Below, piece by piece: positions 3,351 through 23,167 of a DNA stretch of 64,000 nucleotides (within the stretch, counting starts at the first letter, position 1; each line of letters starts with the position of its first letter). The notes under the pieces were generated by a model. It ran no database searches. It was given only the letters and a program-made list of their open reading frames with translations, and was not told the origin of the DNA. The DNA comes from Maribacter sp. (GTDB taxonomy: Bacteria; Bacteroidota; Bacteroidia; Flavobacteriales; Flavobacteriaceae): NCBI GenBank assembly GCA_024228355.1, contig JAAETN010000394.1:15081-79080 (forward strand). The letters run 5' to 3'. The position numbers and the translations under genes were made by a program.

Positions 3351-4679
3351 ATGAGATATTTACTTTTTATACTAGTTGGTTTATTTGTCGCGAATGCCCA
3401 TTCACAGGAGGATATTGTTGTTCCTTTGGAAATAAACGCCACCCAAGGTTTGGCTTATGGCACACTTACCAACATGGGTATGGATTCCACTTTAATTTAC
3501 ACGAGGGTAGATTCCATTATAACAAACGGCATACGTAATAATGCCTTCCCAGGAGCACAAGTACTGGTAGCCAAGAAAAGCACGATCATTTTCCATGAAA
3601 GTTATGGTTATCATACCTATGATAGTATTCAAACTGTGGAAAAGGATGATATTTATGATTTGGCCTCAGTAACAAAAATCTCTGGGCCTCTACCAGCCTT
3701 AATGAAATTAGTTGATGAAGGCAAACTTGATTTAGACCTTCCATTTAGCACCTACTGGACGGATTGGAAAAGCATTAAGGACAAAAAGAACATTACCTTA
3801 AGGGAAATATTAGCACATCAAGCAGGACTAACCCCATATATTGTCTTTTTAAATAAGGTAATCAAGAAAAATGGGGATTTGAAAAAACGTTTCATACGCA
3901 CCCAATCAAATTCCAAGTTTAACAATCAGGCTTACGACAATCTTTTTGTGAAAAACAGCTTTAATCGTAAAATGTATCGCATGATCAATAGATCAAAAGT
4001 TAGCGATCAGAAAAAATACAAATATTCTGGACTCACATTTTTAATATTCCCAAAACTTATTGAACAGTTGAGCGGTATAACATATGAGAACTATGTTACG
4101 AATAACTTTTACTCCCCCTTAGGGGCAGGAACTTTAGGATTCAGACCAAAAACCAAAAACTTCCCGAATAAAGTAGTCCCAACCGAAATTGATACGCTTT
4201 ACAGACATACTCTGACACAAGGTTGGGTTCATGACGAAAACGCATCACTTTTGGGAGGAGTTTCCGGAAATGCAGGTCTGTTTGGCACTGCGACAGATTT
4301 GGCCAAGCTAATGCAGATGTATCAGAATTTTGGGTCCTTTGATGGAAAGCGTTTTATATCCGAATCAACAGTAAAGGAATTTATTCGTGTGCAATTTCCA
4401 GGAAATGAAAATCGAAGAGGTTTAGGTTTCGACAAACCCTTGTTGAATAATGTGGAGCTAACATTATCCGATGCTTACCCAGCACCTGAGACCAGCCCTA
4501 TGAGCTTTGGACATAGCGGTTTTACAGGAACTTTCGTTTGGGCCGACCCCGAAAACCAATTGGTATTTATTTTTCTTTCCAACCGTGTAAATCCTACAAG
4601 GGAGAATAGAAATTTGTACGAAATGAACATTAGAGGGGCGCTTCAGCAAGTTTTTTATCAGGCTTCATTACTGAATTAA
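3351..4679 (+). CDS. Secreted serine hydrolase, beta-lactamase/AmpC-like family
   Basis: Signal peptide; DLASVTK (SxxK), GWVHDENA, GNAGLF and FGHSGFTGT motifs. Confidence 0.85.
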   Translation: MRYLLFILVGLFVANAHSQEDIVVPLEINATQGLAYGTLTNMGMDSTLIYTRVDSIITNGIRNNAFPGAQVLVAKKSTIIFHESYGYHTYDSIQTVEKDDIYDLASVTKISGPLPALMKLVDEGKLDLDLPFSTYWTDWKSIKDKKNITLREILAHQAGLTPYIVFLNKVIKKNGDLKKRFIRTQSNSKFNNQAYDNLFVKNSFNRKMYRMINRSKVSDQKKYKYSGLTFLIFPKLIEQLSGITYENYVTNNFYSPLGAGTLGFRPKTKNFPNKVVPTEIDTLYRHTLTQGWVHDENASLLGGVSGNAGLFGTATDLAKLMQMYQNFGSFDGKRFISESTVKEFIRVQFPGNENRRGLGFDKPLLNNVELTLSDAYPAPETSPMSFGHSGFTGTFVWADPENQLVFIFLSNRVNPTRENRNLYEMNIRGALQQVFYQASLLN

Positions 4680-4719
4680 CCCTTATTTATCATTATTTTA
4701 GTCTCCATAAACCAAGTAC

Positions 4720-5841
4720 ATGGGATTACTTTTATTTTACGCTTTTATATCAATTTTTTTCTCCTTTCTATGCTCCATCCTAGAGGCTGTTTTATTGAGT
4801 ATAAACCCTACTTTTATCAATCTTAAGATAAAAGAGGGTAAGGCTTATGCAGAAACTTTGGAAACGCTTAAAAAAGATGTAGACAAACCTTTAATAGCCA
4901 TTCTCACTTTAAATACCATAGCGCATACCGTTGGTGCAATTCTAGTAGGGGTACAGGCTAAAGTAGCATATGCAGATTTGTACGGCAGCACTCAAAGATC
5001 AATCCTTGGAATAGAATTTACCGAGGATGTGATGGTTGGTGTGGTTTCTACGGGTATGACCGTCCTTATTTTGGTGGCTTCAGAGATCATCCCAAAGACC
5101 ATTGGTGCAACGTACTGGAGAAAATTGGCGAATTTTACGGCCAAATCACTAAAAATAATGGTCCTTATCCTTAAATGGACGGGGCTCCTGTGGCTATTAC
5201 AGTTATTTACCAAACTTGTTGGTGGTAAAGGACACCACGGCAGTGTCCTTAGCAGGGAAGATTTTACCGCTATGGCAGATATAGCCCATGAAGAAGGGGT
5301 TTTTCAAGAATCTGAATCCATTGTAATCAAAAACTTGCTCAAGTTTGATGAAATCTTGGCCAAAGATGTAATGACCCCCAGAACGGTTATGAAAATTTCC
5401 CCGGAAAGTAAGACCATCAAGGAGTTTTTCGATGAAAATCCTAAACTTCGATTTTCCAGGATTCCCATTTATAAGGATAAAGCTGATAATATCACCGGGT
5501 TTGTATTAAAGGATACGCTTTTAGAGGAAATGATCCATGAAAATGGCGACCGTCCCCTATCCACCATCAAAAGGGACATTTTGGTTGTAGCTCGGAATAA
5601 GCCCATTCCAGACCTGTTTGAGACCTTTATCTCCCAAAGGCAACACATTGCATTGGTTGTTGATGAATACGGCTCAGTAAGCGGTCTGGTGACCATGGAA
5701 GATGTCATCGAAACACTCTTAGGACTTGAAATAGTTGATGAGAGTGATAATGTTGAAGATCTACAGCACCTTGCGCGTGAAAATTGGAAAACCAGAGCCA
5801 AACGTTTAGGTCTTATTGATGAAGATGCCAAAATTGACTAA
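4720..5841 (+). CDS. CNNM/DUF21-CBS domain membrane protein (CorB/HlyC family)
   Basis: SFLCSILEAVLLS, ILTLNTIAHT, SEIIPKTIG, FSRIPIY and VVDEYGSVSGLVTMEDVIETLLGLEI motifs. Confidence 0.9.
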   Translation: MGLLLFYAFISIFFSFLCSILEAVLLSINPTFINLKIKEGKAYAETLETLKKDVDKPLIAILTLNTIAHTVGAILVGVQAKVAYADLYGSTQRSILGIEFTEDVMVGVVSTGMTVLILVASEIIPKTIGATYWRKLANFTAKSLKIMVLILKWTGLLWLLQLFTKLVGGKGHHGSVLSREDFTAMADIAHEEGVFQESESIVIKNLLKFDEILAKDVMTPRTVMKISPESKTIKEFFDENPKLRFSRIPIYKDKADNITGFVLKDTLLEEMIHENGDRPLSTIKRDILVVARNKPIPDLFETFISQRQHIALVVDEYGSVSGLVTMEDVIETLLGLEIVDESDNVEDLQHLARENWKTRAKRLGLIDEDAKID

Positions 5842-6314
5842 TGGAAACCGCTTTCATACATACGCCCTTGGGAATCGCTAAATTGGAAGGCGATGCCGAC
5901 GGTTTGGTTTCGATCAGCGTTTTGAACGATTCTATAACCCCTAGCCCTATCATACCTGAAATCCTCGAAGATGCAGTTTATCAGCTCCAAGAATATTTTA
6001 AGGGTCAACGGGATTCATTCAGTTTGACGCTGAATCCTGCTGGGACCGATTTTCAAAAAAAGGTTTGGGATGCACTTCAACAGATCCCTTATGGTAAAAC
6101 AATTTCTTATCTAGAATTATCCAAAATCCTGGGCGATGTAAAAGCCATTAGGGCGGTTGCAGCAGCGAATGGGAAAAATCCCTTGTGGATTGTTGTTCCA
6201 TGTCACCGAGTCATCGGTAGTGATGGTTCTTTGACTGGCTATGCAGGTGGGCTTCATCGTAAAAAATGGTTGTTGGCCCATGAGAGCCCAGCAAAACAAC
6301 AATCTCTCTTTTAG
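5841..6314 (+). CDS. ogt: Methylated-DNA-protein-cysteine methyltransferase
   Basis: GTDFQKKVW, IPYGKTISY, AVAAANGKN and active-site PCHRV; start overlaps the upstream stop (TAATG). Confidence 0.95.
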   Translation: METAFIHTPLGIAKLEGDADGLVSISVLNDSITPSPIIPEILEDAVYQLQEYFKGQRDSFSLTLNPAGTDFQKKVWDALQQIPYGKTISYLELSKILGDVKAIRAVAAANGKNPLWIVVPCHRVIGSDGSLTGYAGGLHRKKWLLAHESPAKQQSLF

Positions 6315-6577
6315 ATTTTACAAACTGCATAGTCTGTTTTTCATTTTGTTTTAGTTAAAACTTTGCAATTAGTGCATTTCATCGAACATCTTTGGTCTCA
6401 AATTGAGTTTTTGGACCTTAAAAAGCCTTAAAAAGCTTTACTTCACAAACTACTTGGTCGGTTTTGGGTGTTTCTGCCAACTTTCAATATTTTATTATTT
6501 TTCGAGCTGAAATTGGTCATATCCAGTACTTAAATCATATCCCATTTTGTTCGTATATTTAATTGATTTACCATAGA

Positions 6578-8374
6578 ATGAAGTTGCCATCTATTAACGA
6601 TATGACCGAAAAGGCCCTCATGGCCTTCAAAAGATTTCCAATTACCTTAAGCTGGGCCATTACGGGTAGTTTGATCTTCATCGGGATTGTCAATGTTGAT
6701 GCCAATCTATTATTTGATGAATATTCCGGCCTAATACTAACATTTATACTAGGGGTAAGCTGGTTCATTGGTGCCCGTTTTTTTATCGAACAAACGAAAA
6801 ACCCAAAAAAATGGGATTGGTTAAAACTGATCATTCTGGGCTTATTGGTTCTTTTTTACAGCCATTTACCTGATTTGAGCGGATATGACCATGACCCCAA
6901 ATACTTTGTACGCTTCTTTTTATATATAATTGCGGGTCATTTATTCTTATTTGCTGCTCCCTTTTTGCTAAACTGGAATAGTAAGGCCTACTGGAATTAT
7001 TTAAAGTCTATCTGTATAGCAATCGGTCGAAGCGTATTGTTTTCGGGTGTTTTGTTTTTAGGCCTAGTACTGGCCTTGGCAGCCATACAGGCCTTGTTCG
7101 ATATTGATATTAGACCAGAGCGCTACGGACAGCTTTTTATTTTTTGTTTAGGTATTGTCAACACATGGACATATTTATCTGATTTTCCCAAAGATGTTTT
7201 ACAACAGGCCACTATCAACTATAACAAGGCATTGGAAGTTTTTGTAAAATACATTTTAATTCCTTTGATGTGTTTGTATATAGTGATTCTCTATGCTTAT
7301 AGCTTGAAGATAATTTTGGAATGGAGTCTTCCCAAAGGTTGGGTATCTTATTTGGTCACTGCATTGGCATTTTTAGGTTTTATCATACAAGTTATGGTGA
7401 ATCCCATTCAGAAAACCATAAAGTCGTGGGTAATAAACAAGTTTTACCCCTGGTTTTATATCTTACTACTCCCATTGATAGCACTGCTTTTTGTTGCTAT
7501 ATTTAGGCGTATTGCGGATTATGGGATAACTGAGAACCGATATTTTGTCTTGATCATTGCATTCTGGATTTTCAGTATGGTCCTTTTTCTATTATTGAGC
7601 AAAAAGAAACAACTGAAAGTATTGCCTATTTCACTTTTCATTTTGGCCCTACTGTCTTCTTTTGGATTTTGGGGGGCTTTCAGTATTTCAAAAAACAGTC
7701 AAGTAAAGCAGTTCCAAAAAGTCTTTGAACAGGTGAGTGTAAATGAAAATATCGCCTCGAACGAACAGTACGAGCGCCTGAGCTCAATCATCGAATATCT
7801 GGCTGAGGGCAAATCACTGACCCGATTGGATGATATTGTACAACTTTCTACACATGAAATCTGCAAAGACACCACTGAAGGTTCCAAGAGAACCTACGGA
7901 TATAATGCCCCTCAGCAATTGCTTGACACATTAGGCATTGAGATTGATGAAAATGACCAAGTAAGAAACTCGAATGGAAAATCCTTTAATTATTTTCCGT
8001 CTTGGGATAAAAACCAAACATTTATAATTGATGATTATGAATATTTTTCCCAAATTTATTTCAATGATCATGATGACTACAAAATGAAAATTGGTGAATT
8101 CGATATACTATATCATCAAAAAAACAAGGTAATCTCCTTCTTTTCCCAAAAAGACAGTAGTTTGGTCCATAAAGTACCAATTAGTGAAAAGTTATTGAAC
8201 CTATCTAAATATGGTACTAACATGGACAATGTGCCTGAAGAGAATCTGATTTTAGTCTCTGAAAACAATCAAATTGAAGTTAAGTTTATTTTTACGGAAC
8301 TTGGATTCCAAATTATAAACGACTCCATTCAGCTAAATCAAGCAAGAACATTTTTATTCTTAAAAGAGAAGTAA
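6578..8374 (+). CDS. DUF4153-like polytopic membrane protein
   Basis: About 11 hydrophobic segments, R..DYGITENRY motif and a soluble C-terminus; ATG at 6578 preferred over the ORF-track start at 6563. Confidence 0.75.
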   Translation: MKLPSINDMTEKALMAFKRFPITLSWAITGSLIFIGIVNVDANLLFDEYSGLILTFILGVSWFIGARFFIEQTKNPKKWDWLKLIILGLLVLFYSHLPDLSGYDHDPKYFVRFFLYIIAGHLFLFAAPFLLNWNSKAYWNYLKSICIAIGRSVLFSGVLFLGLVLALAAIQALFDIDIRPERYGQLFIFCLGIVNTWTYLSDFPKDVLQQATINYNKALEVFVKYILIPLMCLYIVILYAYSLKIILEWSLPKGWVSYLVTALAFLGFIIQVMVNPIQKTIKSWVINKFYPWFYILLLPLIALLFVAIFRRIADYGITENRYFVLIIAFWIFSMVLFLLLSKKKQLKVLPISLFILALLSSFGFWGAFSISKNSQVKQFQKVFEQVSVNENIASNEQYERLSSIIEYLAEGKSLTRLDDIVQLSTHEICKDTTEGSKRTYGYNAPQQLLDTLGIEIDENDQVRNSNGKSFNYFPSWDKNQTFIIDDYEYFSQIYFNDHDDYKMKIGEFDILYHQKNKVISFFSQKDSSLVHKVPISEKLLNLSKYGTNMDNVPEENLILVSENNQIEVKFIFTELGFQIINDSIQLNQARTFLFLKEK

Positions 8375-11831: not shown

Positions 11832-13043
11832 ATGTTAGAAAAGAAATCCATAGAATACGAAAAAGCTGTCCTGATTGGTGTTATCAACAGGGCACAAAAT
11901 GAGGAAAAGGTAAATGAATATCTTGATGAATTGGAGTTTCTTACCTATACCGCTGGGGGCGAAGTCGCAAAGCGTTTTGTACAACGTGTGGAAATACCCA
12001 ATCCAAAGACGTTGATTGGAAGTGGAAAAATGAAGGAAGTAGAGGATTTTGTTGAGGAGAATGAAATAGGTTCGGTCATATTCGATGATGAACTATCCCC
12101 TGGTCAGCAACGAAATATTGAAAAACAATTACGTTGTAAAATTTTAGATCGTACGAGTTTGATCCTCGATATTTTTGCACAAAGGGCCAAAACCAGTTAT
12201 TCCAGAACCCAAGTAGAATTGGCGCAATACGAATACCTCCTACCAAGGCTAACCGGTCTTTGGACGCATTTGGAAAGACAAAAAGGGGGGATCGGAATGC
12301 GGGGTCCTGGGGAAACCGAAATTGAAACTGATCGACGTATTGTTCGTGACCGGATTTCATTGCTAAAGAAAAAACTTTCTAAGATCGACCGTCAAATGGA
12401 AACGCAACGCGGCAATAGGGGTGCCCTTGTGAGAGTGGCCTTAGTGGGTTACACCAACGTGGGGAAATCTACACTAATGAATGTAATTAGTAAGAGCAAT
12501 GTTTTCGCGGAAAATAAACTATTTGCAACTCTGGACACGACAGTTCGGAAGGTCGTTATAGGTAATCTTCCCTTTTTATTGAGTGATACCGTCGGATTCA
12601 TTCGAAAGCTCCCCACACAATTGGTCGAAAGTTTTAAAAGTACGTTGGATGAAGTTCGTGAAGCAGATTTGCTTTTGCATGTGGTCGATATTTCACATCC
12701 GAACTTTGAAGAACACATAGAATCCGTGAATAAAATATTGGCAGAAATAGACAGTGCCGACAAAAAGACCATCATGGTGTTCAATAAAATTGATCGATAC
12801 AAACACGAAACTATCGATGATGATGATCTGGTTACGGAGAGAACTACCAAGCATTTTACAATTGGCGATTGGAAAAGTACCTGGATGCAGCGAATGGGTG
12901 AGAATGCCTTGTTCATTTCAGCATTGAACAAGGAAAACCTGGATGAATTCCGTAAACAGGTCTACAATGTGGTCAGGGATATTCATGTAACGCGTTTTCC
13001 GTACAATAATTTTCTATATCCGGAGCATCTAGACCAATACTAA
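11832..13043 (+). CDS. hflX: Ribosome-splitting GTPase HflX
   Basis: ILDIFAQRA, GPGETEIETDRR, GYTNVGKST, DTVGFI and NKID motifs. Confidence 0.97.
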   Translation: MLEKKSIEYEKAVLIGVINRAQNEEKVNEYLDELEFLTYTAGGEVAKRFVQRVEIPNPKTLIGSGKMKEVEDFVEENEIGSVIFDDELSPGQQRNIEKQLRCKILDRTSLILDIFAQRAKTSYSRTQVELAQYEYLLPRLTGLWTHLERQKGGIGMRGPGETEIETDRRIVRDRISLLKKKLSKIDRQMETQRGNRGALVRVALVGYTNVGKSTLMNVISKSNVFAENKLFATLDTTVRKVVIGNLPFLLSDTVGFIRKLPTQLVESFKSTLDEVREADLLLHVVDISHPNFEEHIESVNKILAEIDSADKKTIMVFNKIDRYKHETIDDDDLVTERTTKHFTIGDWKSTWMQRMGENALFISALNKENLDEFRKQVYNVVRDIHVTRFPYNNFLYPEHLDQY

Positions 13044-13203: not shown

Positions 13204-13803
13204 TTAGTTGAAGAAATATCCAACGGAAATCTGTATTGCCGAAGTACGATTATTACCAACAAAAAATTCCTTAAAATCGCTGCTACTATAAATTTCGGAA
13301 AGACCCAGATTATATCGTACTGCAAAATTTAAGCCGCTCTCCAATTCGTAACCAATACCAAAATTGACGCCAATATCTGTTCCTGAAATATCTTCTTTAA
13401 CATCCAATGTCCCAGAATTTGAGTCAGACTCCCATACATCCTTGGCAGATAATAAAAATCCCACTTGCGGCCCAGCCTCAAGGCTTAACCCATCCGCAAC
13501 CATAAATTTAGCCATTAACGGAACATTTAAATAATCAAATTTATATTTACCTTCAAAATCACCTCTATCATATTTATACCCTTGGAGAGAATACAATAAT
13601 TCTGGTTGAAATGAAAGCTTGTCTGTTAATGAAATTTTTGCGACCCCTCCAAGATGGAAAGCTGTTCTTGCCTTTTGACCCGGGGCATCTCCAGAAACAT
13701 TGGTAATATTCACACCTGCTTTAGCTCCAAATTTTACTTCTTGGGCATTGTTTGCTGTCAATCCAAACAAGGCAATCGTTACAAATAATAATAACTTTTT
13801 CAT
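13204..13803 (-). CDS. Outer-membrane beta-barrel protein (porin family, OMP_b-brl_2-like), copy 1
   Basis: Signal peptide; FGAKAGVN, FQPELLYSLQG, YLNVPLM and GPQVGFLLSAK motifs; C-terminal YFFN. Confidence 0.88.
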   Translation of the reverse strand: MKKLLLFVTIALFGLTANNAQEVKFGAKAGVNITNVSGDAPGQKARTAFHLGGVAKISLTDKLSFQPELLYSLQGYKYDRGDFEGKYKFDYLNVPLMAKFMVADGLSLEAGPQVGFLLSAKDVWESDSNSGTLDVKEDISGTDIGVNFGIGYELESGLNFAVRYNLGLSEIYSSSDFKEFFVGNNRTSAIQISVGYFFN

Positions 13804-14075
13804 GATTAATAGGTTTTAATATTGATTAATAAAAACTAAATCTTCTTTTTCAAATAATAAACTTGGTTTTAAGAATTTGGCCAATGTTAACTTAAAGGGG
13901 AGCTTTTTATCATACGATCTTTATTATCGTCGGTATTGCAGATACAAAGTATCGGATTATCTGGTTTCCGTGACCTTAAACTTTATATTTTACTTATATC
14001 GGGGAATTGGATTTGCACAAGCCAATTCTGGGATTATTTCAATTGCTTTAGTGTAATTTGGTTTAATCAACAAGC

Positions 14076-14144
14076 CAAAACTATTGCAGTGTTAGTGAAA
14101 TAACTAACAGCTAGGTTCCAGATGTTGACAGGATAATTCCAGAT
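14076..14144 (-). promoter_or_regulatory. Promoter of beta-barrel gene 1: TAGTTTTG -7 box with upstream ATCTGGAA direct repeats
   Basis: Minus strand reads ATCTGGAAT (14144-14136), ATCTGGAAC (14123-14115, 21-bp period), then 31 nt, then TAGTTTTG (14083-14076); the same architecture precedes copy 2. Confidence 0.65.
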
Positions 14145-14303
14145 ACACATTTGTCTGTAGAAGTACTGCTAGTTAGTCAGAATGCTCCAAAATTCTGTTC
14201 TCAAACCTAAATTTCCCGGATTATTAAGTTAATATGACATGAGGTTTGTTTCTGTCATAAAATCCTTAAACTATTGGAAGTAATTGGTAAGGTGACAGGA
14301 AGC

Positions 14304-17240
14304 TTAATAAGAAGAAGGTGCCACACCGTACAACTCCTTGAAACATTTGGCAAAATAGGAAAGGTTGTTAAACCCAACTCTATACGCTATCTGTGTAACG
14401 TTATCTGCTTTTTGGGATAACAATTGAGCGGCCCTCTTTAACCTAAAATTACGTAGTAATTCCCCTGGAGCTTCATTTGTCAAGGCTTTCAGTTTTCGGT
14501 GTAACTGGGTTTTGCTCATGGCCAAGGTCTCTTGCATTTGTGTTACACCAAAATCAGAATCAGAAAATTCAGCTTCCAACAATGCCAATACCTGCTCCAA
14601 GAATTTTGTATCAGTTGAGGTAACCGTGATTTTCCTTGGGTTTACCAGAATTTCTTTATTGGTAAATAATTCTCTCAGTTTTTGCCTTTGTTCAATAAGA
14701 TTTTTGGTGCGTACCAAAAGCTCTTTGCCGTCAAAAGGTTTAGTAAGATAGTCATCAGCCCCGGTTTCAAGTCCTTCAATTTTGTTGTCAATTCCCGCTT
14801 TAGCTGTGAGCATAATTATGGGGACATGACTGGTATGCACATTCGTCTTTAGTTTTTTACAAAGCTCAATCCCATCCATTTTAGGCATCATTAAATCTGT
14901 AATGATAAGCTCCGGAGGGTTGGATATGGCCATTTGCAATCCAATTATACCATTAATGGCTTCCTTTATTTTGTAGAATTTTATGAGCTGCTCTTTGATA
15001 TAATGTCTCATGTCATCATTGTCTTCTATCAACAGAATACTGGCGAGAGTTCTTTTATCGGTTCCCTTAAGATCATAAGGTTTGGAAATGTCGACCTTTG
15101 GCTTGGAGGATGAAATCAACTTTTCAGTTTTTACCTGTCCGGTCTTTATTTCTTGTAAAGGTATTTGTGCCGTAAAGATTGAACCTTCATTTATTTCACT
15201 GGAAACGGTTATGGTACCGTCCATTAACTCAACCAATTCCTTGGAAATTGAAAGTCCGATTCCTGATCCTTCTTTTTCCTTTGTTGAACCACCATCTACT
15301 TGATAAAAACGATCAAAGACAAATGGAAGTTTTTCCTTTGGAATTCCTTTCCCTGAATCTGAAACCACTATTTTAAGATCATCACCGGTATATTGGGTTT
15401 CAATTGAAATAATAGAACCATTCTCACTAAACTTAAAAGCATTGCCAAGTAAATTGTACACTATTTTCTCAAATTTATCCCTATCAAAAGAGGCCCAAAG
15501 TTTAGTTTGTGGAATTTGCACTTTGTAATCTATATTCCGTTGAGCCGCATGTGAACTAAAAGAGGAGGTAGCCGCCCGTAGACATTTATAGATATCCCCT
15601 TCCGTGGGTTCTAGTTTTAAATTTCCCTCGTCAATCTTAGATAGGTCCAAAAGCTGATTTACCAATTGAAGTACTCGATTGGTATTACGTCTGATCATTC
15701 TTACATTGTCTTTACTCAAATTTTCGTCAAGATTTTGCTCCAATCTTTCGATCGGTCCTTTAATAAGTGCCAGCGGCGTTCTAAATTCGTGGGAAATATT
15801 AGCAAAAAAATTAGATTTTAATCTATCCAATTCCCTGAGTTTCTCATTGGTTCTTTGTTTAATCCTATATTGCTTATATAGTAATACTGCTAGGGTCAGC
15901 ATTACTAGCGAAAAAGCAATTATTGTGTTGCGTTCGTTTATTCGCTTGTTCAGCTGCAAAGTTTGTAGGTTTTTTTCAGATTCCAAAAGTGCAATCTCCT
16001 TGGTCTTTTGTTCGTTTTGAAACTTTGCCTCAATTTCATTAGCCAATTCTCTTTTCTCCACACTATGAAAACTGTCTCTTACTACTGAGTAGAGATTTTT
16101 ATAAATATAGGCCTGTTCATAATTACTTTCTTCTATATAGATATTTGACAATGATTCATAAACATCCAATTCCACAAGATTTAATTCAACATCTTTGGCT
16201 ACTTCCAAGGCATCAAACAAATATGCCAATGCATTATTAGTGTCCTTGAGTTTGTGGTAACTGTCCCCTATTGCTTTAAGCGAATACCCTATATTCACCG
16301 AATCCTTGATGTCCGATGAAGTAATTAATGCCGTTTGGTAAAAGCTTAATGCTTTGGAAAATTCCTTTTGTTCCCAATGTATACTCCCCATAGTGTACTG
16401 GGCGTATGCCAATCTTTTTCTGTTACCCAAACTTTGATAACTCTCTATGGCCTTTCGGTTATATTTAAGTGCCTCCTCAATATTTCCCTTATTTTTGTAA
16501 ACAACCGCAAGACTATACTCGACATATGCCTTGCCGGGCAAAAAATTGGTTTCCTTAAAAATACTATCACTCAAAATAAGATAGTCTATAGCACTCTCAT
16601 AATTTTCCAATCTTCTTTGCACCAATGCTATATTGCCCAGCGTAATACCATAATCCTTGATATTTCCGTTTTCAAGATGTTTCTTGGAAGCCTTGGTGTA
16701 AAGTTCCATCGCTTTTGTATACTCCCCAGTTTCAACATAGATATTGGCCATATTGTTGTAATAATGAACAATATCTTCTTGGTCATTTCGTATTTTGGCC
16801 AATTCAAAACTTTTTTTATGAAACTCCTTGGCCTTTTTAAAGTCTCCTTTTTTCCAATGTACATTTCCAAGACCGACCAAACCTTCAAAAATACCATCAT
16901 TGTACTGTACTTTTTTTGATAATCTTAAACCCGCCGAGTATTGGACAATAGCCGAATCATAATTAGAGCGTGAACTGAAGAAATCGCCATAAATGTTATA
17001 ACTTATTGCCTCAAAACGAACGTTTCCAATTTGTTTCGAAAGCAAAATGGCTTTAAGTACTGATTCTTTCCCCTTCCCAGGAAAATCATATTGGTATTCA
17101 GAATAAAGCTGATGAAGAATTTTAATTTTGATTGAATCTACAATAGCCTTCTTATATTCCAATTGAAGACTATCGATCTTCGCTTGCGAAAACGATAATG
17201 TATGAAGTAGCACTGCAAACGGGAAAAGTAACTTTCTCAT
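14304..17240 (-). CDS. Hybrid two-component system 1: TPR sensor, TM, HisKA/HATPase, REC and AraC HTH
   Basis: TPR-like helices, TM IIAFSLVMLTLAVLLY, H-box NISHEFRTPL, GSGIGL, REC IITDLMMPKMDG, AraC GFNNLSYFAKCFK; ATG at 17240 preferred because a TATATTG box sits at 17259-17265. Confidence 0.92.
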   Translation of the reverse strand: MRKLLFPFAVLLHTLSFSQAKIDSLQLEYKKAIVDSIKIKILHQLYSEYQYDFPGKGKESVLKAILLSKQIGNVRFEAISYNIYGDFFSSRSNYDSAIVQYSAGLRLSKKVQYNDGIFEGLVGLGNVHWKKGDFKKAKEFHKKSFELAKIRNDQEDIVHYYNNMANIYVETGEYTKAMELYTKASKKHLENGNIKDYGITLGNIALVQRRLENYESAIDYLILSDSIFKETNFLPGKAYVEYSLAVVYKNKGNIEEALKYNRKAIESYQSLGNRKRLAYAQYTMGSIHWEQKEFSKALSFYQTALITSSDIKDSVNIGYSLKAIGDSYHKLKDTNNALAYLFDALEVAKDVELNLVELDVYESLSNIYIEESNYEQAYIYKNLYSVVRDSFHSVEKRELANEIEAKFQNEQKTKEIALLESEKNLQTLQLNKRINERNTIIAFSLVMLTLAVLLYKQYRIKQRTNEKLRELDRLKSNFFANISHEFRTPLALIKGPIERLEQNLDENLSKDNVRMIRRNTNRVLQLVNQLLDLSKIDEGNLKLEPTEGDIYKCLRAATSSFSSHAAQRNIDYKVQIPQTKLWASFDRDKFEKIVYNLLGNAFKFSENGSIISIETQYTGDDLKIVVSDSGKGIPKEKLPFVFDRFYQVDGGSTKEKEGSGIGLSISKELVELMDGTITVSSEINEGSIFTAQIPLQEIKTGQVKTEKLISSSKPKVDISKPYDLKGTDKRTLASILLIEDNDDMRHYIKEQLIKFYKIKEAINGIIGLQMAISNPPELIITDLMMPKMDGIELCKKLKTNVHTSHVPIIMLTAKAGIDNKIEGLETGADDYLTKPFDGKELLVRTKNLIEQRQKLRELFTNKEILVNPRKITVTSTDTKFLEQVLALLEAEFSDSDFGVTQMQETLAMSKTQLHRKLKALTNEAPGELLRNFRLKRAAQLLSQKADNVTQIAYRVGFNNLSYFAKCFKELYGVAPSSY

Positions 17241-17434
17241 CCTTAAACATTCTTTGTACAATATACCTAATTCCCAGATATTTAAATGTAATGGATAATG
17301 ATAAACGCAAACTGATCTAAATGGCTAACAGAATAGTTCCAAATTGTAAAAAATATTATCTAAATGACAAACCTTAACAAATAATATTTACAAAATGATG
17401 TCGTTCACCGGAGAATTAATACCGTTAATTTTTT

Positions 17435-17504
17435 CACCACATATTACTTCTGGTTCACAACATATTTTAGGGTTCATTGCCCTAATGCAATATTTTTACA
17501 TTGT
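17435..17504 (+). promoter_or_regulatory. Promoter of putative sRNA 1: CACCACA-N14-CACAACA repeats plus TACATTG -7-like box
   Basis: Repeats at 17435 and 17456 (21-bp period) and TACATTGT at 17497; identical spacing in copy 2. Confidence 0.6.
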
Positions 17505-17528
17505 AATTAAGTGATAGTGTTGACCCCA

Positions 17529-17546
17529 TCCCGATAGTTATCGGGA
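17529..17546. repeat. 18-bp palindrome TCCCGATA-GT-TATCGGGA
   Basis: Perfect 8-bp arms; present in sRNA copy 1 and absent at the aligned position of copy 2. Confidence 0.75.
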
Positions 17547-17642
17547 AAAACATGAACTTAACCGAAAAAGAAATATGAGTTTCCCCAAAACCTATTCTTA
17601 ACCAAAAATCGCTAAAACCAAATTTTACAAACCTACTTAACT

Positions 17643-17674
17643 AAAAAAAGCCCTTTGAAAAAAGGGCCTTTTTT
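17643..17674. terminator. Bidirectional intrinsic terminator (sRNA 1 / beta-barrel gene 2)
   Basis: A7-GCCCTTT-GA-AAAAAGGGC-C-T6. Confidence 0.85.
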
Positions 17675-17684
17675 ATGGTTAATT

Positions 17685-18260
17685 TTAGTTAATGAAGTAT
17701 CCTACCGATATTTGAAATACCCCGTTTCTTATGGTATCTGAATCATTTGGAATATCATTGATATCGAATCCAAAATAATACCTCGCACCAATGTTGACCC
17801 CATTTCCTAATTTATATCCCAAACCTAGAACCAAGCCCAAATCGGTGGACTTCGTAATATCCTTTAAATCATCCGTTTGACCATCAACGTCAGCTTTGGC
17901 TGATAATAGAAGACCCACCTGAGGCCCAGCTTCTATACTTAGTTCATCAGTTGCATGGAATTTACCCAAAATGGGTATACTCAAATAATCCAACTTAACC
18001 ACCTCATCGTCATCAACATCAGACTTTGCCCCTTGTGCAGAATATAGCAATTCTGGCTGCACCGAAAAAGCATCCGAAATCGGGATTTCTGCCATGCCCC
18101 CTAGATGAAAGGAAGTTCTTGTTTTACCATTATTAAAATCTCCCCCAAGTGTTGCGAGATTAAGACCTGCTTTAGCACCGACTTTTATATCCTGTGCATT
18201 AATAATCATCAACCCAGTGATTGTAATAACAATCGATACAAATAATTTTTTCATAATCAT
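17685..18260 (-). CDS. Outer-membrane beta-barrel protein, copy 2
   Basis: Paralog of 13204-13803 (VGAKAGLN, VQPELLYSAQG, GPQVGLLLSAK, C-terminal YFIN); ATG at 18260 or 18254 preferred over the ORF-track start at 18311. Confidence 0.88.
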   Translation of the reverse strand: MIMKKLFVSIVITITGLMIINAQDIKVGAKAGLNLATLGGDFNNGKTRTSFHLGGMAEIPISDAFSVQPELLYSAQGAKSDVDDDEVVKLDYLSIPILGKFHATDELSIEAGPQVGLLLSAKADVDGQTDDLKDITKSTDLGLVLGLGYKLGNGVNIGARYYFGFDINDIPNDSDTIRNGVFQISVGYFIN

Positions 18261-18382
18261 AAATTTTAGTTGTTGCTCTTTTATATATGGCGGGGAACGT
18301 TTCTTAACCAAACACTACCGATCTTAATCAAACACCACCAAATAGAATATTTGTCTAAGGCGCTTATTACCGATCAACAAGT

Positions 18383-18430
18383 CAAAACTACGGTTATGAA
18401 CTCCCATGGGCTAGGAGTGTAGTCCCAGAT
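18383..18430 (-). promoter_or_regulatory. Promoter of beta-barrel gene 2: ATCTGGGAC-N31-TAGTTTTG
   Basis: Minus strand reads ATCTGGGAC (18430-18422), exactly 31 nt, then TAGTTTTG (18390-18383) followed by CTTGTTGAT as in copy 1. Confidence 0.65.
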
Positions 18431-18457
18431 TTTAGGAGAATAGTTACTTTGTTAATA

Positions 18458-18492
18458 TTAGAAGTCAGAAACAAGAAATCAGTGTCAAGAAC
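18458..18492. repeat. Degenerate 7-bp-period array
   Basis: ttagaag|tcagaaa|caagaaa|tcagtgt|caagaac. Confidence 0.5.
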
Positions 18493-18713
18493 ATAGTTTG
18501 TGCCCAATGAATGATAACAGGTAAGCATTGGATTATGAATGGAAAATAAAGGAAGCTGGGTGTTTTAAGGAGAAGGTATAAAAGTTCAATTTGGAAATTA
18601 ATCAATTTGAAAATTTGCAATTGATTTACTTAATCAATGCAGCTAAGAGCGATAGGTTGCCTGTTTGGGATTCTTCGGAAAGAGCTTGAAAGAAAAACTT
18701 TTGGGCTTGGTGC

Positions 18714-21527
18714 TTAATAGGAAGAGGGTACTGTACCATAGAGTTCCTTGAAGCATTTTGTAAAATAGGAAAGGTCGTTAAACCCCACTTTATAAGCAAT
18801 TTGGGTAACACTATCTGCCTTATGGGATAATAGTTGAGCTGCTCTTTTTAATCGAAAGTTACGCAATAGTTCACCAGGGGCTTCATTGGTCAAGGCCTTT
18901 AGTTTTCGGTGTAGTTGTGATTTACTCATACCAAGGGCCTCCTGCATTTGAGATACGCCAAAATCTCCATACGAGGATTTATCTTCGAGCAAGGTTATTA
19001 AGCTTTCCAAGAATCTTCGGTCTACAGAGGTAACGGCCATTTTCTTTGGATCTATCTGAATCTGCATATTGGAAAATGCTTCCCTTAGCCTCTTACGCTG
19101 CTCAATAAGATTCTTTGCGCGGACCAACAGTTCATCGCCGTTAAAGGGTTTTGTTAGGTAGTCATCGGCCCCAGTTTCCAGGCCTACGATTTTATTAGCC
19201 ATTCCGGCCTTTGCGGTCAGCATAATTACAGGAATATGACTGGTGTTAACATTGGTCTTCAATTTATTACACAATTCCAATCCGTCCATATTGGGCATCA
19301 TCAGGTCCGTGATAATCAAGTCTGGCGAATCTTGTATCGCCTTCTTTAACCCATTCCGACCATTCGTGGCTTCAGTAATTTTATATAGCTGAACAAGATT
19401 CTCTTTTATAAAATGGCGCATATCATCATTGTCCTCTACCAACAATATGAGCGGTACCGTTCTTTTGTCATTTTTGATTAATTCAAAAGTATCCCGTTTA
19501 GGCAATCTATTGGCAATATCATACTCTCCAACTATTTTTTCCTGTCCGGTCCTAATTTCTTGTACAGTGAGAGAAACCGTAAAGAGGGAGCCCTTGTCCA
19601 ATTTACTGGAGACAGTTATAGTGCCATCCATAAGCGTTACCAAATCCTTGGTAAGTGACAGACCAATACCAGATCCTTCTTTTTCACGAGTAGAACCGCC
19701 ATCTACCTGATAAAAACGATCAAAAACGAACGGTAGTTCTTCTTTTGGAATGCCTTTCCCAGAATCTGACACTTGCATTTGAAGCTCCTGTCCTTGGCAC
19801 ATTGCTTTGAATGATATGACCGCACCATCTTCGCTGAACTTAAATGCATTACTGAGAAGGTTATATACTACTTTTTCTAGTTTGTCTCGATCAAAGGAAG
19901 CCCAAAGTACTACCTGAGGAATCTGTATCCGATAATCGATATTGCGTTGTGCCGCGTGGGAGTTAAAAGATGATACAGACGCGCGTAAACATTTAAATAT
20001 ATCACCCTCTGTAAGATCTAACCTTAAATTTCCCTCGTCAATCTTTGAAAGGTCTAAAAGTTGGTTTACGAGTTTGAGCACCCGAGTTGTATTTCGTCTT
20101 ATCATTTTTACGGTATCCATTCCAAGCTGTTCCCCAGGGTTTTGTTCCAATCGTTCTATTGGACCTTTGATCAATGATAGCGGGGTCCTGAATTCATGGG
20201 AAATATTGGCAAAAAAATTAGATTTTAATTGATCAAGTTCCATCAGTTTTTTGTTCGCCTTTTGCTTCACATGGTATTGGTTATATATTAGCCCACTAAG
20301 GACCAGCATTAGAACTGCAAAGGCAATAATGGCATTACGTTCATTTATTCGCTTGTTAAGATTTACCGTTTGTAACTTTTTTTCTGAGGCTAGAAGAGCC
20401 AATTCCTTGGCTTTTTGTTCGTTTTGATACCTAGCCTCCAAATCATTGGTGACAAGAAGTATCTTTTCATTATATAAACTATCGGATAATACAATGGTAG
20501 TAAGTGCACTGTTATGGGCTTTTTCAAATTGACCTAGTTTTTGGTATGCTTTTGATAAGAATCGATGAATTTCTATAGCCCCATCAAGAGTAGCCGTTGA
20601 ATCAAGATTTGCTAGTGCGTTATTTGCCATTTTTATGCTTTGCGTGTAGTCGCCTTGACCAAATACCGCCTCTGCCAGCCCATATTCTATTTCGTAGCCG
20701 AGGTTCACATCATCCACCTCATTGGCCAATTCAAAGGCTTTTCTCAAATAATTCTCGGCCGTAATATACTCCCCTAAATTATTGTAAACAATCCCCAAGC
20801 TGTTCAAAACCCTAGCCTCACCCAGCTTGTCCCGTGTTTCCTTTTTAAGTTCCAATGCCTGCTCATGATAGCGAATTGCCTTCCTAAACTCCCTAATTTC
20901 AATATATATATTTCCCAAATTGGTAAGGCAGGCAGAAATACCCGGTTTAATGTCCAGCTCTCTAACCAATGCCAAGGCAGCCTCGTAATTATCTCCAGCT
21001 TTTTTATATTGTTTTTGATTTTTATATACCCCTCCTATCGCACTATAAATTATGGCTTCCCTATTTTTATCATCGTTAGTTTTTGCAAGAGTCAATGCTT
21101 CAAAAAATAATTTAAACGCTACTTCATTTTTTGACTGCATTCTCGCAATTTTGCCGAGTTCCGTTTTAACATCAATTATCCCCGACTGGTCATCAAGTTC
21201 ATAAAAAACCATGAGGGCCGTCTCGTATTTTTCTTGGGCCTGACGGTATTCCCTCAAGTTTGTCAACATATATGCGGTATTTCGCCTTGCCTTTGCCAGC
21301 ATCAATGTCAGTCCTGCCTTTTCAGATAACTCCTCTGCATTTATAGCATAACCCATTGCTGTTTTTATATCATTCCTATAATATTCATTAACCAAATCTA
21401 GGTATACCTGAACTTTAATACTGTCCTCCTTTAATGTAGGTAGAATACGGAGTAGACTGTCTGCATTGGATTGGGAATATAAGAGGGAAACGGATAACAA
21501 CCAGAATAAAACATATTTCCATTTCAT
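18714..21527 (-). CDS. Hybrid two-component system 2: TPR sensor, TM, HK, REC and AraC HTH
   Basis: Paralog of HTCS 1; NISHEFRTPL, IITDLMMPNMDG, GFNDLSYFTKCFK; near-identical C-terminus KELYG..PSSY. Confidence 0.92.
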   Translation of the reverse strand: MKWKYVLFWLLSVSLLYSQSNADSLLRILPTLKEDSIKVQVYLDLVNEYYRNDIKTAMGYAINAEELSEKAGLTLMLAKARRNTAYMLTNLREYRQAQEKYETALMVFYELDDQSGIIDVKTELGKIARMQSKNEVAFKLFFEALTLAKTNDDKNREAIIYSAIGGVYKNQKQYKKAGDNYEAALALVRELDIKPGISACLTNLGNIYIEIREFRKAIRYHEQALELKKETRDKLGEARVLNSLGIVYNNLGEYITAENYLRKAFELANEVDDVNLGYEIEYGLAEAVFGQGDYTQSIKMANNALANLDSTATLDGAIEIHRFLSKAYQKLGQFEKAHNSALTTIVLSDSLYNEKILLVTNDLEARYQNEQKAKELALLASEKKLQTVNLNKRINERNAIIAFAVLMLVLSGLIYNQYHVKQKANKKLMELDQLKSNFFANISHEFRTPLSLIKGPIERLEQNPGEQLGMDTVKMIRRNTTRVLKLVNQLLDLSKIDEGNLRLDLTEGDIFKCLRASVSSFNSHAAQRNIDYRIQIPQVVLWASFDRDKLEKVVYNLLSNAFKFSEDGAVISFKAMCQGQELQMQVSDSGKGIPKEELPFVFDRFYQVDGGSTREKEGSGIGLSLTKDLVTLMDGTITVSSKLDKGSLFTVSLTVQEIRTGQEKIVGEYDIANRLPKRDTFELIKNDKRTVPLILLVEDNDDMRHFIKENLVQLYKITEATNGRNGLKKAIQDSPDLIITDLMMPNMDGLELCNKLKTNVNTSHIPVIMLTAKAGMANKIVGLETGADDYLTKPFNGDELLVRAKNLIEQRKRLREAFSNMQIQIDPKKMAVTSVDRRFLESLITLLEDKSSYGDFGVSQMQEALGMSKSQLHRKLKALTNEAPGELLRNFRLKRAAQLLSHKADSVTQIAYKVGFNDLSYFTKCFKELYGTVPSSY

Positions 21528-21700
21528 TTTAAAGGTATTGGCTATACAAGATACTTAATTCCTGGATAGTGCAGATAATGGTAATTGTAAGTAAGATTGC
21601 ATGAAAAAACTAGAACAATAGTCCCAAATTGTAAAATAAAAATAGCAATCACTGGCATAAAACCTGCCATTCATCGGAGAAATAATACCGTTAATTTTTT

Positions 21701-21770
21701 CACCACATTATACTCCTGGTTGACAACATATTTTAGGGCTCATTAACCTACTGCAGTATCTTTACATTGT
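21701..21770 (+). promoter_or_regulatory. Promoter of putative sRNA 2
   Basis: CACCACA at 21701, GACAACA at 21722 (21-bp period) and TACATTGT at 21763, 41 nt after the second repeat as in copy 1. Confidence 0.6.
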
Positions 21771-21771
21771 A

Positions 21772-21937
21772 ATTAAGTGATAGTGTTGGCCCCAAAGCAA
21801 CTCATGAACTTAACCGAAACAAAGTGTAAGTTTCCCAAAGCGAACACTAAACCTACAAAAAGCTACCTGAGTATTATCAGGACCAAATTTTAAAACCTAC
21901 TTAAAAAAAGCCCTTTGAAAAAAGGGGCTTTTTTTTT
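21772..21937 (+). ncRNA. Putative small RNA, copy 2
   Basis: Starts ATTAAGTGATAGTGTTG like copy 1 and ends in a nearly identical terminator; no convergent gene needs this terminator. Confidence 0.55.
21903..21937 (+). terminator. Intrinsic terminator of putative sRNA 2
   Basis: A-run GCCCTTT-GA-AAAAAGGGGC followed by T9. Confidence 0.85.
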
Positions 21938-22093
21938 ACATAATTCCCACACTCATGTTCTGGAATATCCAAAAAATTGGTAGTTCATCGATCATACTAT
22001 ACGTTTTAACGTATTTCACCACAATTCTCCCATGCTACACAACAAAAATTTAGAAGTACGAACCCTTGAATTTACATTCGCTTCGTATTTATG

Positions 22094-22215
22094 ATTAAGT
22101 GTTTTGTCCCATGGAATTATTACTGACCTACAAGCATAAAATTTTTTGACTGATTTACCCAATTTTACAAATCCTACTTAACAAAAAAAGCCCTGACTAA
22201 ACCGTCAGGGCTTTT
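22094..22215 (+). ncRNA. Putative small RNA, copy 3 (diverged, orphan)
   Basis: Upstream CACCACA (22017) and CACAACA (22038) 21-bp repeats, TACATTCG (22073), ATTAAGTG start, AATTTTACAAATCCTACTTAA 3' block and terminator. Confidence 0.45.
22183..22215. terminator. Bidirectional intrinsic terminator (sRNA 3 / DUF3078 gene)
   Basis: A7-GCCCTGAC-TAAACC-GTCAGGGC-T4. Confidence 0.88.
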
Positions 22216-22237: not shown

Positions 22238-23167
22238 TTAGAAGGCATAGTTAAGTCCAAACAACCAATAGGTTTGCAGTTCGTTATCAACATTGTCGAA
22301 AGTCGCTCCTGTGACAGGAGTCGGTCCGTTCAAAGCATAATTAAGTGCTTCTTGCTTGTTGTCCCTAAGCCCAAATTCAAATCCTAGTCCAATCCCGTTC
22401 CATAACGTATAGCCCAGAGAGTTTATCCAGGTCCAATTGGATAAATTAGAAGATTTATAGCTTTGAAACATGGAAAGATTGGTTTTGAAATTTACATTTC
22501 CAATTTTTCTTGTGTAATCAGCAACGATCTTGGCCCCTAATGAAGACTCGAAAATGGCATCTTCATCACTAAATACAAAGTTGTAGTTCAGAGGATGGAT
22601 TACCACAACCAAATCAGTAATCGGTGTCCATGTGGCACCAACACCTAGGTCTAAATACCCTGGATTATTTAAGTTGCTTAACAAGGTAGTCCTATATTCC
22701 CCTAAAGCCGAAATAGCGAATTTTTCGCTGATTTTTTGACCGTAAAGCGACGTTATGGTAAATACATCCGTAGCTTCTTTAAAGCTGTCATCATCGGAAG
22801 CATCATCCTTATCATCGAACTTGATCCAAGCAAGATTTACATTTCCTGAATTTCTCCAGAAAAATTTCTCTTGTTGAAGATTAGCGAAGGCATTAACCGT
22901 GACACCAATGTTCCCGGCGCTTGAATTTGCTTCACCTTTTGAATACCAGTTGCTAAAACCAGAAAGGTTGGCGCCAATCGTTCCAAATGCCCCTTTTTTC
23001 CAGCCTGGAAGAGCATCAATTTGTGTTTGAAGGGCATCGACCCGGCCTTGAATTGCAGCAATGGAATCCTTTTTGGGTCCTTGCAATGCTTTAAGTTCAT
23101 CTGCCGTTTGCGCGTAGGTAGCTGATATAGCCATAAAAGCCACCACTGTGAATACTAGATTTCTCAT
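22238..23167 (-). CDS. DUF3078-family exported/outer-membrane protein
   Basis: Signal peptide, coiled segment, WKKGAFG and FSNWY motifs, beta-strand-rich, C-terminal Phe. Confidence 0.75.
   Translation of the reverse strand: MRNLVFTVVAFMAISATYAQTADELKALQGPKKDSIAAIQGRVDALQTQIDALPGWKKGAFGTIGANLSGFSNWYSKGEANSSAGNIGVTVNAFANLQQEKFFWRNSGNVNLAWIKFDDKDDASDDDSFKEATDVFTITSLYGQKISEKFAISALGEYRTTLLSNLNNPGYLDLGVGATWTPITDLVVVIHPLNYNFVFSDEDAIFESSLGAKIVADYTRKIGNVNFKTNLSMFQSYKSSNLSNWTWINSLGYTLWNGIGLGFEFGLRDNKQEALNYALNGPTPVTGATFDNVDNELQTYWLFGLNYAF

Follow-up and report, generated by a model that had tools for sequence, protein, structure and literature searches.

Two hybrid two-component regulators, their putative outer membrane protein targets, and a family of predicted small RNAs at one chromosomal site in Maribacter

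INTRODUCTION

Hybrid two-component systems (HTCSs) of the Bacteroidota, such as the regulators of polysaccharide utilization loci (PULs) in Bacteroides thetaiotaomicron, join in a single polypeptide a signal or transmembrane (TM) segment, a periplasmic sensor, a TM helix, HisKA and HATPase_c kinase domains, a receiver domain (REC), and an AraC-type helix-turn-helix (HTH). The usual view is that they sense glycans and turn on SusC/D loci. Here we analyze a 64,000-nucleotide stretch of the genome of Maribacter sp. (the window), in which two genes, HTCS1 and HTCS2, encode proteins of this same domain order. Like the described regulators, each adjoins a gene that it presumably activates, and syntenic orthologs elsewhere keep the Reg_prop/Y_Y_Y sensor. 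Unlike them, the two proteins sense through an array of tetratricopeptide repeats (TPRs), no SusC/D pair accompanies them, and the cargo is one small beta-barrel outer membrane protein (OMP) or, in relatives, a few surface lipoproteins. Short noncoding units on the opposite strand, here called U, lie beside the HTCS genes. We consider it probable that the locus combines two separate things at one site: old HTCS-OMP cassettes, each with a TPR sensor and an operator-driven OMP gene, and a family of small RNA (sRNA) genes resident at that chromosomal position.

A periplasmic TPR sensor kinase is also found in FimS/FimR of Porphyromonas gingivalis, which controls fimbriae and for which the ligand is not known (PMC11053733). 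The proteins studied here resemble FimS in placing periplasmic TPRs before a Bacteroidota histidine kinase and in having a presumed cell surface output, and the NCBIfam model HK_Porph_FimS (NF053520) aligned over their TPR-to-kinase part at 206.3 and 211.9 bits, far below its cutoff of 600. They differ in having a fused, AraC-type response regulator in place of a separate FimR and in presumably targeting a porin-like barrel, where FimS/FimR controls fimbrial genes.

Few sRNAs have been characterized in the Bacteroidota, in which translation rarely uses G-rich Shine-Dalgarno sites. The C-rich-loop sRNAs of Firmicutes (RsaE/RoxS type) and the multicopy families Qrr and PrrF offer a comparison for U. 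The U units likewise appear to encode short terminator-ended RNAs with C-rich motifs (GACCCCAAAUC and a hairpin with a CCCC loop), and they occur as several paralogous copies, often in tandem, behind what looks like an activator-dependent promoter. The U units differ in having no sequence relation to those families and no Rfam match and in being confined to about 8% of Flavobacteriaceae genera.

RESULTS AND DISCUSSION

Between positions 13204 and 21940 of the window, the order of an OMP gene and an HTCS gene on the minus strand and a short noncoding unit on the plus strand was present twice, an arrangement that a sequence-only reading had described and that open reading frames (ORFs), Pfam matches, and repeat alignment bore out. 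The first module consists of OMP1 (13204 to 13803, minus strand), HTCS1 (14304 to 17240, minus strand), and U1 (promoter region at 17399 to 17502 and predicted sRNA of ∼170 nucleotides [nt] at 17503 to 17680, plus strand). The second consists of OMP2 (17685 to 18260, minus strand), HTCS2 (18714 to 21527, minus strand), and U2 (promoter and predicted sRNA, 21665 to 21940, plus strand). The two are related as direct repeats with a period of 4,266 to 4,410 nt, made up of the 3′ halves of the HTCS genes (73 to 76% DNA identity) and of the ∼275-nt noncoding units (76 to 88%), with 17399 to 17674 aligning with 21665 to 21934. The OMP-HTCS spacers of the two modules had only short motifs in common. 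Beyond the end coordinate of the earlier reading lay a third, more diverged unit, U3 (∼21980 to 22215 or 22220, plus strand; nhmmer E = 2.2e-14), proximal to a DUF3078 gene.

HTCS1 (978 amino acids from a likely ATG start at 17240, in an ORF that opens at TTG 17261) and HTCS2 (937 amino acids) shared one architecture: a signal peptide, TPRs, a TM helix, HisKA-HATPase, REC, and AraC HTH. Pfam assigned TPR_12, HisKA, HATPase_c, Response_reg, and HTH_18 to both, with the kinase, receiver, and AraC domains above the gathering score, and both contained the H-box SHEFRTPL and the sequence context of the receiver aspartate. By hydropathy scan only, each protein began with a signal-like segment and had one hydrophobic helix further on, at residues ∼445 to 465 in HTCS1 and ∼398 to 418 in HTCS2, and because of these two segments the TPR part is predicted to be periplasmic. 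Residues ∼60 to 320 matched TPR families alone (TPR_12, E = 1.9e-31 and 4.3e-28), PDB matches of the sensor were to generic TPR proteins and nothing else, and Pfam detected no Reg_prop/Y_Y_Y sensor in either protein and no SusC/SusD or glycoside hydrolase among the neighboring genes. Overall identity was 51 to 54%, made up of ∼20 to 25% in windows of 50 residues across the TPRs versus ∼70 to 80% from the TM helix onward. We conclude that two proposals of the sequence-only reading hold: the kinase halves are alike while the TPR sensors have diverged, and a TPR-type periplasmic sensor sits on a histidine kinase-REC-AraC backbone with no SusC/D found nearby.

No other TPR-kinase-REC-AraC genes were present in this genome, and the exact HTCS2 sequence had no record in public assemblies. 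The genome collection included 574 relatives, mainly from Flavobacteriaceae and other Bacteroidota. A second group of homologs, ∼1,300 amino acids long, matched the kinase-REC-AraC half alone (63 to 74%); one syntenic member, L070, carried the Reg_prop plus Y_Y_Y sensor of classical HTCSs, and ten more homologs shared its length of ∼1,300 amino acids. A tree built from the kinase-REC-AraC part placed the propeller-type proteins in one clade with the TPR-type protein L064 as its neighbor, and at least one sensor swap must therefore have occurred (two changes on the tree). In 27 of the 30 HTCSs compared, the last 71 residues, in the AraC domain, had identities of 82 to 97% (median, 90%). One slot homolog, L073 of Maribacter halichondriae (3696 to 7539), was broken into ORFs of 718 and 478 amino acids and is probably a pseudogene.

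OMP1 (199 amino acids; PF13568, E = 1.2e-23, 84.5 bits) and OMP2 (191 amino acids from ATG 18260; E = 5e-20, 72.7 bits) both exceeded the PF13568 cutoff of 27 bits, and each had a signal peptide, a length of ∼190 to 200 amino acids, and an aromatic C-terminal residue. Against the TDE1717 family NF049866 (cutoff, 135), OMP1 scored 135.9 bits, just above the threshold, and OMP2 scored 126.1 bits, below it. The two proteins thus match the profiles and size of the OMP_b-brl_2/TDE1717 family, whose function is uncharacterized, and were 47 to 50% identical to each other. A gene of the same family lay directly downstream in 6 of the 17 closest full-length TPR-type homologs (L055, L056, L058, L067, L068, and L069) and also adjoined the propeller-type homolog L072. 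The remaining homologs had other cargo, among it a CarboxypepD_reg lipoprotein with a 140-amino-acid lipoprotein, a TIG/beta-helix lipoprotein, Kelch lipoproteins, and small lipoproteins with CSxDD-type lipoboxes. We conclude that this HTCS lineage carries several alternative cargoes, of which the OMP is one.

Two features of the OMP leaders may be noted. GTTCCCC or GTCCCC stood ∼25 to 35 nt before the start in all OMP leaders, at 13830 to 13860 and 18270 to 18290 of the window and in L055, L056, L058, L068, L069, and L072, and the motif has the orientation of the CCCC loops in the U RNAs. The predicted 5′ untranslated regions were unusually long here, at ∼266 nt for OMP1 (13804 to 14075) and ∼120 nt for OMP2 (18261 to 18382), and measured ∼27 to 105 nt in most other genera and ∼310 nt in L072.

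A putative operator accompanied the HTCS genes. In 22 of 28 HTCS homologs, with any sensor or cargo, the sequence directly downstream contained a pair of 21-bp direct repeats with the consensus ATyTGGnAC-N5-TGTTAG, separated by a 20-nt spacer from the −7 box TAGyTTTG; the flavobacterial sigma-A −7 consensus is TAnnTTTG (PMC9723704). When both strands of the 4.7-Mb genome were searched, the full operator and promoter pattern occurred exactly twice, each time as an OMP promoter. At OMP1 (14076 to 14144, minus strand), the distal repeat ATCTGGAATTATCCTGTCAAC (14144 to 14124) and the proximal repeat ATCTGGAACCTAGCTGTTAG (14123 to 14104) were followed by a 20-nt spacer and the −7 box TAGTTTTG (14083 to 14076). 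At OMP2 (18383 to 18451, minus strand), the distal repeat (18451 to 18431) was degenerate, and the proximal repeat ATCTGGGACTACACTCCTAG (18430 to 18411), a 20-nt spacer, and the same −7 box TAGTTTTG (18390 to 18383) followed. In both cases the repeats were one 21-bp period apart and abutted the −33 region, and the nearly invariant C terminus of the AraC domain fits a shared operator. A single operator-like half-site was also found upstream of each HTCS gene, TGGAAC-N5-TGTTAG upstream of HTCS1 (17325 to 17341, minus strand), within a 27-nt element common to the HTCS2 upstream region, and TGGGAC-N5-TTCTAG upstream of HTCS2 (21610 to 21626, minus strand), which suggests autoregulation. The sequence-only reading had proposed that the HTCS activates the OMP gene, and both the conserved operator and promoter after HTCS genes and the adjacency of HTCS and OMP genes in seven other close homologs support it. 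We conclude that, as a prediction from conserved sequence, the regulatory link from HTCS to OMP is well supported. Near both HTCS start codons (17266 to 17282 and ∼21550 to 21566) stood another conserved element, ATCyrGGAATTArGTAT, ∼62 bp, or three 21-bp periods, from the upstream half-site.

The U units were compared in 46 nonredundant copies from several genera. Each copy began with an upstream block of conserved sequence, followed by the U box TTCACCACA-N12-TTCACAACA. Next came a −33-like TTTAG, which a spacer of constant length (∼20 nt) and free sequence separated from a −7 box, TAnnTTTAC, that varied at nn alone. The geometry TTTAG-N20-TAnnTTTAC was present in nearly all copies and resembles the flavobacterial sigma-A element TAnnTTTG (PMC9723704). 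Downstream came GUAAUUAAGUGAUAGUGUUGACCCCAAAUC, then GAACUUAACC at some distance, a hairpin, ACCAAAUUUUAC, AACCUACUUAAC, and a terminator. A terminator hairpin with a T-run on the unit's own strand was found in 46 of 46 copies, and upstream A-runs varied. In U1, the U box TTCACCACA-N12-TTCACAACA occupied 17433 to 17462, the −33-like TTTAG ended at 17470, and a 20-nt spacer preceded the −7 box TATTTTTAC (17491 to 17499). The predicted RNA contained the stem P1 (UUAAGU/ACUUAA), a CCCC motif, a hairpin P2 with a CCCC loop (∼17583), and CCUACUUAAC, and it ended in a predicted bidirectional terminator (17650 to 17674) that would also terminate OMP2. The corresponding positions in U2 were 21699 to 21728 (U box), 21757 to 21765 (−7 box), ∼21769 to 21940 (predicted sRNA), and 21910 to 21937 (terminator), all on the plus strand. 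In U3, also on the plus strand, they were 22015 to 22044 (U box), 22068 to 22075 (GAATTTAC), 22173 to 22182 (CCTACTTAAC), and 22190 to 22215 (terminator, common to DUF3078).

In the predicted RNA, P1, in which UUAAGU pairs with ACUUAA, was nearly invariant. P2 presented a CCCC(A) loop on stems that differed between copies (GUGU/ACAC, UAAAGG/CCUUUA, GAAGG/CCUUC, CUAAAAA/UUUUUAG, and others), and single-sequence folds placed the C-run in the P2 loop in most copies. When P2 was scored on a hand-given structure, 73.6% of cells were paired in the fixed register versus 22 to 50% with the partner slid, double-sided changes numbered 22 versus 12.5 in shuffles (0 of 500 as high) with 6 of 10 pairs changing on both sides, and the covariation score was 0.242 versus 0.158 (0 of 500 shuffles). 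RNAalifold on MAFFT alignments recovered P1 and part of the terminator alone, and not P2. No Rfam family matched the window at gathering score, and at an E value of ≤10 over 17250 to 17700 there were only sub-threshold, terminator-driven matches; a literature search found no paper combining small RNA, Flavobacteriaceae, and hflX. Promoter geometry, a covarying P2, and universal terminators agree with the earlier proposal that the short noncoding unit is a genuine sRNA gene. We conclude that there is good comparative evidence for the U units as structured RNA genes of ∼165 nt on the plus strand, and that they form an undescribed multicopy family absent from Rfam.

Two other identities for U were considered and rejected. 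U1 has a 39-codon ORF from 17396 and a short one at CATGAAC, both of which were broken or changed in U2 and in congeners. A dispersed repeat or miniature inverted-repeat transposable element did not fit, as blastn placed the unit at this locus alone in the genome, apart from a diverged fourth unit. U1 also contained an inserted 16-nt hairpin, CCCGATAGTTATCGGG (17529 to 17544), absent from U2 and most homologs. Elsewhere in the genome, at least five contigs carried near-identical 18- to 22-mers, and two congeners (L028 and L030) had such sequences in their U copies at another position; the insert looks like a tiny mobile hairpin of the repetitive extragenic palindrome type.

The chromosomal distribution of U did not follow that of the HTCS genes. 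The locus is bordered on the left by the hflX GTPase gene (11832 to 13043, plus strand; Pfam GTP-bdg_N/M and MMR_HSR1) and on the right, as judged by Pfam (PF11276) and synteny, by the DUF3078 gene (22238 to 23167, minus strand). In nine of nine congeners examined, this hflX-DUF3078 slot consisted of one to four tandem U units with no HTCS or OMP gene. There hflX was 90 to 97% identical, the first unit began ∼27 nt past the hflX stop, and a U3-type unit stood at the same position in most congeners. A close HTCS ortholog anywhere in the genome was found in 2 of 18 congeners, the best match in the rest reaching at most ∼53% in the kinase half. Among 80 HTCS loci fetched, U was present at all 16 that lay in the slot versus 1 of the 64 that lay elsewhere, and the HTCS-OMP pairs L058, L067, and L068, outside the slot, had no U within 6 kb. 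The U core motif was detected in 24 of 300 Flavobacteriaceae genera (about 8%), with no matches to a reversed control, at one to four copies per genome that were sometimes dispersed.

The U box also set U apart from the cassettes. In all three units and in congeners, it took the form of 9-N12-9 direct repeats immediately next to the −33 element, and it differed from the operator found after HTCS genes. Sites of the LytTR family (AgrA, ComE, and AlgR) are 9-bp direct repeats 12 bp apart; the U box shares this layout, and its consensus letters are unlike those of known LytTR sites. Promoters with a U box and the same downstream geometry recurred elsewhere in the genome, at C26:13002 (minus), C326:12981 (plus), and C395:4454 (minus), where they stood before another unit of ∼90 nt that ends in a terminator, a gene for a secreted protein, and two tandem genes for membrane proteins of 56 to 58 amino acids. 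A fourth, diverged U-like unit on contig C394 (∼83100 to 83520, minus strand), 4.4 kb beyond the end of the window, had the same upstream block, the U box, the −7 box TAAATTTAC, AACCCCAAATC and CCTACTTAA, and a strong terminator. The scattered promoters suggest the regulon of another regulator, which is probably separate from the HTCSs. The presence of U in congeners that lack the HTCS, together with its distinct box, therefore argues that the sRNA genes are slot residents under different control and that U and HTCS are associated because they share a position. This goes against the proposal that the sRNA is the third part of a repeatable module, as U was absent from 63 of 64 nonslot HTCS loci.

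One possible contact between the two parts was seen. U1 (17595 to 17606) and the OMP2 leader (18301 to 18312, ∼45 nt before the ATG) had 12 nt of perfect complementarity, which was matched in 1 of 300 shuffles. Comparable complementarity was not found in the five other U-leader pairs of the window or in six pairs from other genomes, and RNAduplex comparisons of the U RNAs with five leaders were uninformative because the program allowed huge internal loops. We regard a U1-OMP2 pairing as a lead only, hinted at by base complementarity.

The origin of the apparent tandem repeat was addressed with the same tree of the kinase-REC-AraC part. HTCS2 grouped with L056, L058, and L067 (SH-aLRT, 96) to the exclusion of HTCS1, and the best full-length matches were L064 for HTCS1 (62%) and L067 for HTCS2 (62%). 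OMP2 was 56 to 63% identical to OMPs of other genera, above its identity to OMP1. The nearest congener, G008, had hflX, U, and an OMP2-like gene (minus strand) on one contig and a propeller-type HTCS gene (minus strand), U, U3, and DUF3078 on another, and the best match of U1 (82%) was the hflX-proximal unit of G008, which lies between hflX and the OMP2-like gene. When the stretch from hflX to OMP1 and the OMP-HTCS spacers were searched for remains of a U unit with nhmmer --max, no match was better than an E value of 0.5. The simplest reading would start from an ancestor resembling G008, with the order hflX, U, cargo, HTCS, U, U3, DUF3078, in which a second, old-paralog cassette, OMP1-HTCS1, came to lie between hflX and the first U. 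We conclude that the two modules appear to be old paralogs and not products of a recent duplication of a three-part unit, contrary to the earlier idea that a local duplication had created two input specificities.

Taken together, we favor a reading in which a periplasmic ligand would alter the kinase activity of the HTCS, phosphotransfer from His to Asp would proceed inside the polypeptide, and the AraC domains of a phosphorylated dimer would bind the two 21-bp repeats, which end 20 bp before the −7 box, and activate the OMP promoter. U1, U2, and U3 would each make an RNA of ∼165 nt from their own sigma-A-type promoter, with a CCCC-loop hairpin and an intrinsic terminator. Such genes would normally reside in the hflX-DUF3078 region of a clade of Flavobacteriaceae, mostly as tandem arrays, and would be driven through the 9-N12-9 box, probably by another regulator of LytTR-like layout. 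The HTCS-OMP cassettes would then sit between U units, and the locus would look like a three-part tandem repeat because two cassettes are interleaved with a preexisting U array. Some observations weigh against this reading. The U box is also a direct repeat with a 21-bp period, so that its spacing alone would also fit an AraC-type binder. The divergent U lies ∼160 bp upstream of every slot HTCS (16 of 16), which may reflect function and not shared positional ancestry, and the complementarity of U1 to the OMP2 leader hints at cross-talk. Moreover, the operator is assigned to the HTCS by co-occurrence alone and its distal repeat is degenerate at OMP2, and the position of HTCS1 in the tree is not settled.

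The same spacing, seen across several genera, the recurrence of OMP, HTCS, and U together in L055, L056, L069, and L072, and the 12-nt complementarity would all be expected if the TPR-HTCS controlled both the OMP gene and the divergent sRNA gene and the sRNA fed back on the OMP. We think such an integrated module improbable, given that the U box is intact in all nine congeners examined that have no HTCS or OMP in the slot, that most congeners lack a close HTCS ortholog anywhere, that the U box is unlike the HTCS operator and occurs at unrelated promoters, and that HTCS-OMP pairs outside the slot lack U and the other U-leader pairs compared lack the complementarity. That HTCS and OMP are mere neighbors, the repeats serving another regulator or the cargo promoters while the HTCS controls unlinked genes, is likewise unlikely: the OMP does adjoin just 8 of 19 close TPR-type homologs, the two of the window included, but the repeats track the HTCS gene whatever its cargo (OMP, CarboxypepD_reg, TIG/beta-helix, or small lipoproteins), are unique in this genome to the two OMP promoters, and accompany an almost invariant AraC domain.

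A recent in situ tandem duplication of OMP-HTCS-U, with fast divergence of sensor and OMP and gene conversion on the kinase halves, would account for the identical order and spacing, for DNA identities of 73 to 76% from kinase to AraC and up to 88% in U, and for the presence of only two such genes in the genome. We give this explanation little credence, since HTCS2 forms its supported group without HTCS1, HTCS1 is nearer L064 (62%) than HTCS2 (51%), OMP2 is nearer the OMPs of other genera than OMP1 (47 to 50%), and the nearest match to U1 is the unit beside hflX in G008. It is very unlikely, moreover, that the U units are repeated intergenic DNA, with a role in recombination or insulation, or a promoter and terminator array for the flanking genes, and not RNA genes. 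Their tandem occurrence, the rearrangement of the slot between genomes, and bidirectional terminators that also end OMP2 and DUF3078 would suit such DNA; the compensatory changes in P2, the fixed −33/−7 geometry around a spacer of variable sequence, T-runs on the unit's own strand in every copy while upstream A-runs vary, and a distribution unlike that of a dispersed mobile repeat argue for RNA genes.

Because the same backbone and operator occur with a propeller sensor and with other lipoprotein cargo, the cassette is read as a swappable-sensor switch for surface proteins and not as a PUL regulator. One conserved signaling and DNA-binding backbone, whose operator can be read from the sequence, appears to carry either a TPR or a beta-propeller sensor and to drive small surface proteins only, and in many marine Flavobacteriaceae it does so from one fixed slot of the chromosome. 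It therefore offers a testable operator-regulator pair and a natural series of sensor swaps bearing on what TPR sensors detect. It also cautions that physical linkage to an sRNA gene can come from a shared site and not from a shared function. As a speculation that we hold to be possible but rather doubtful, the U RNAs could be C-rich-loop sRNAs of marine Flavobacteriaceae, maintained in tandem behind hflX under LytTR-like control with mRNAs of envelope proteins as targets; their arrays could serve as recombination landing pads for the insertion and exchange of HTCS-cargo cassettes with interchangeable sensors, and the U1-OMP2 pairing could be a first step toward connecting a newly arrived cassette with the sRNA network.

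Outside the slot, the neighboring genes are an exo/endonuclease-phosphatase gene on the hflX side and DUF2480 and Suf genes on the DUF3078 side. The window contained no genes for tRNA or tmRNA. An identical HflX with the same OMP1 neighbor was present in L158, L159, and L160 (GCA_024449705.1, GCA_024449935.1, and SRR3646127), on contigs that stopped in OMP1 or at most ∼1.1 kb beyond and went no further than the 3′ end of HTCS1. The same organism thus turns up again in assemblies that are very fragmented or mixed.

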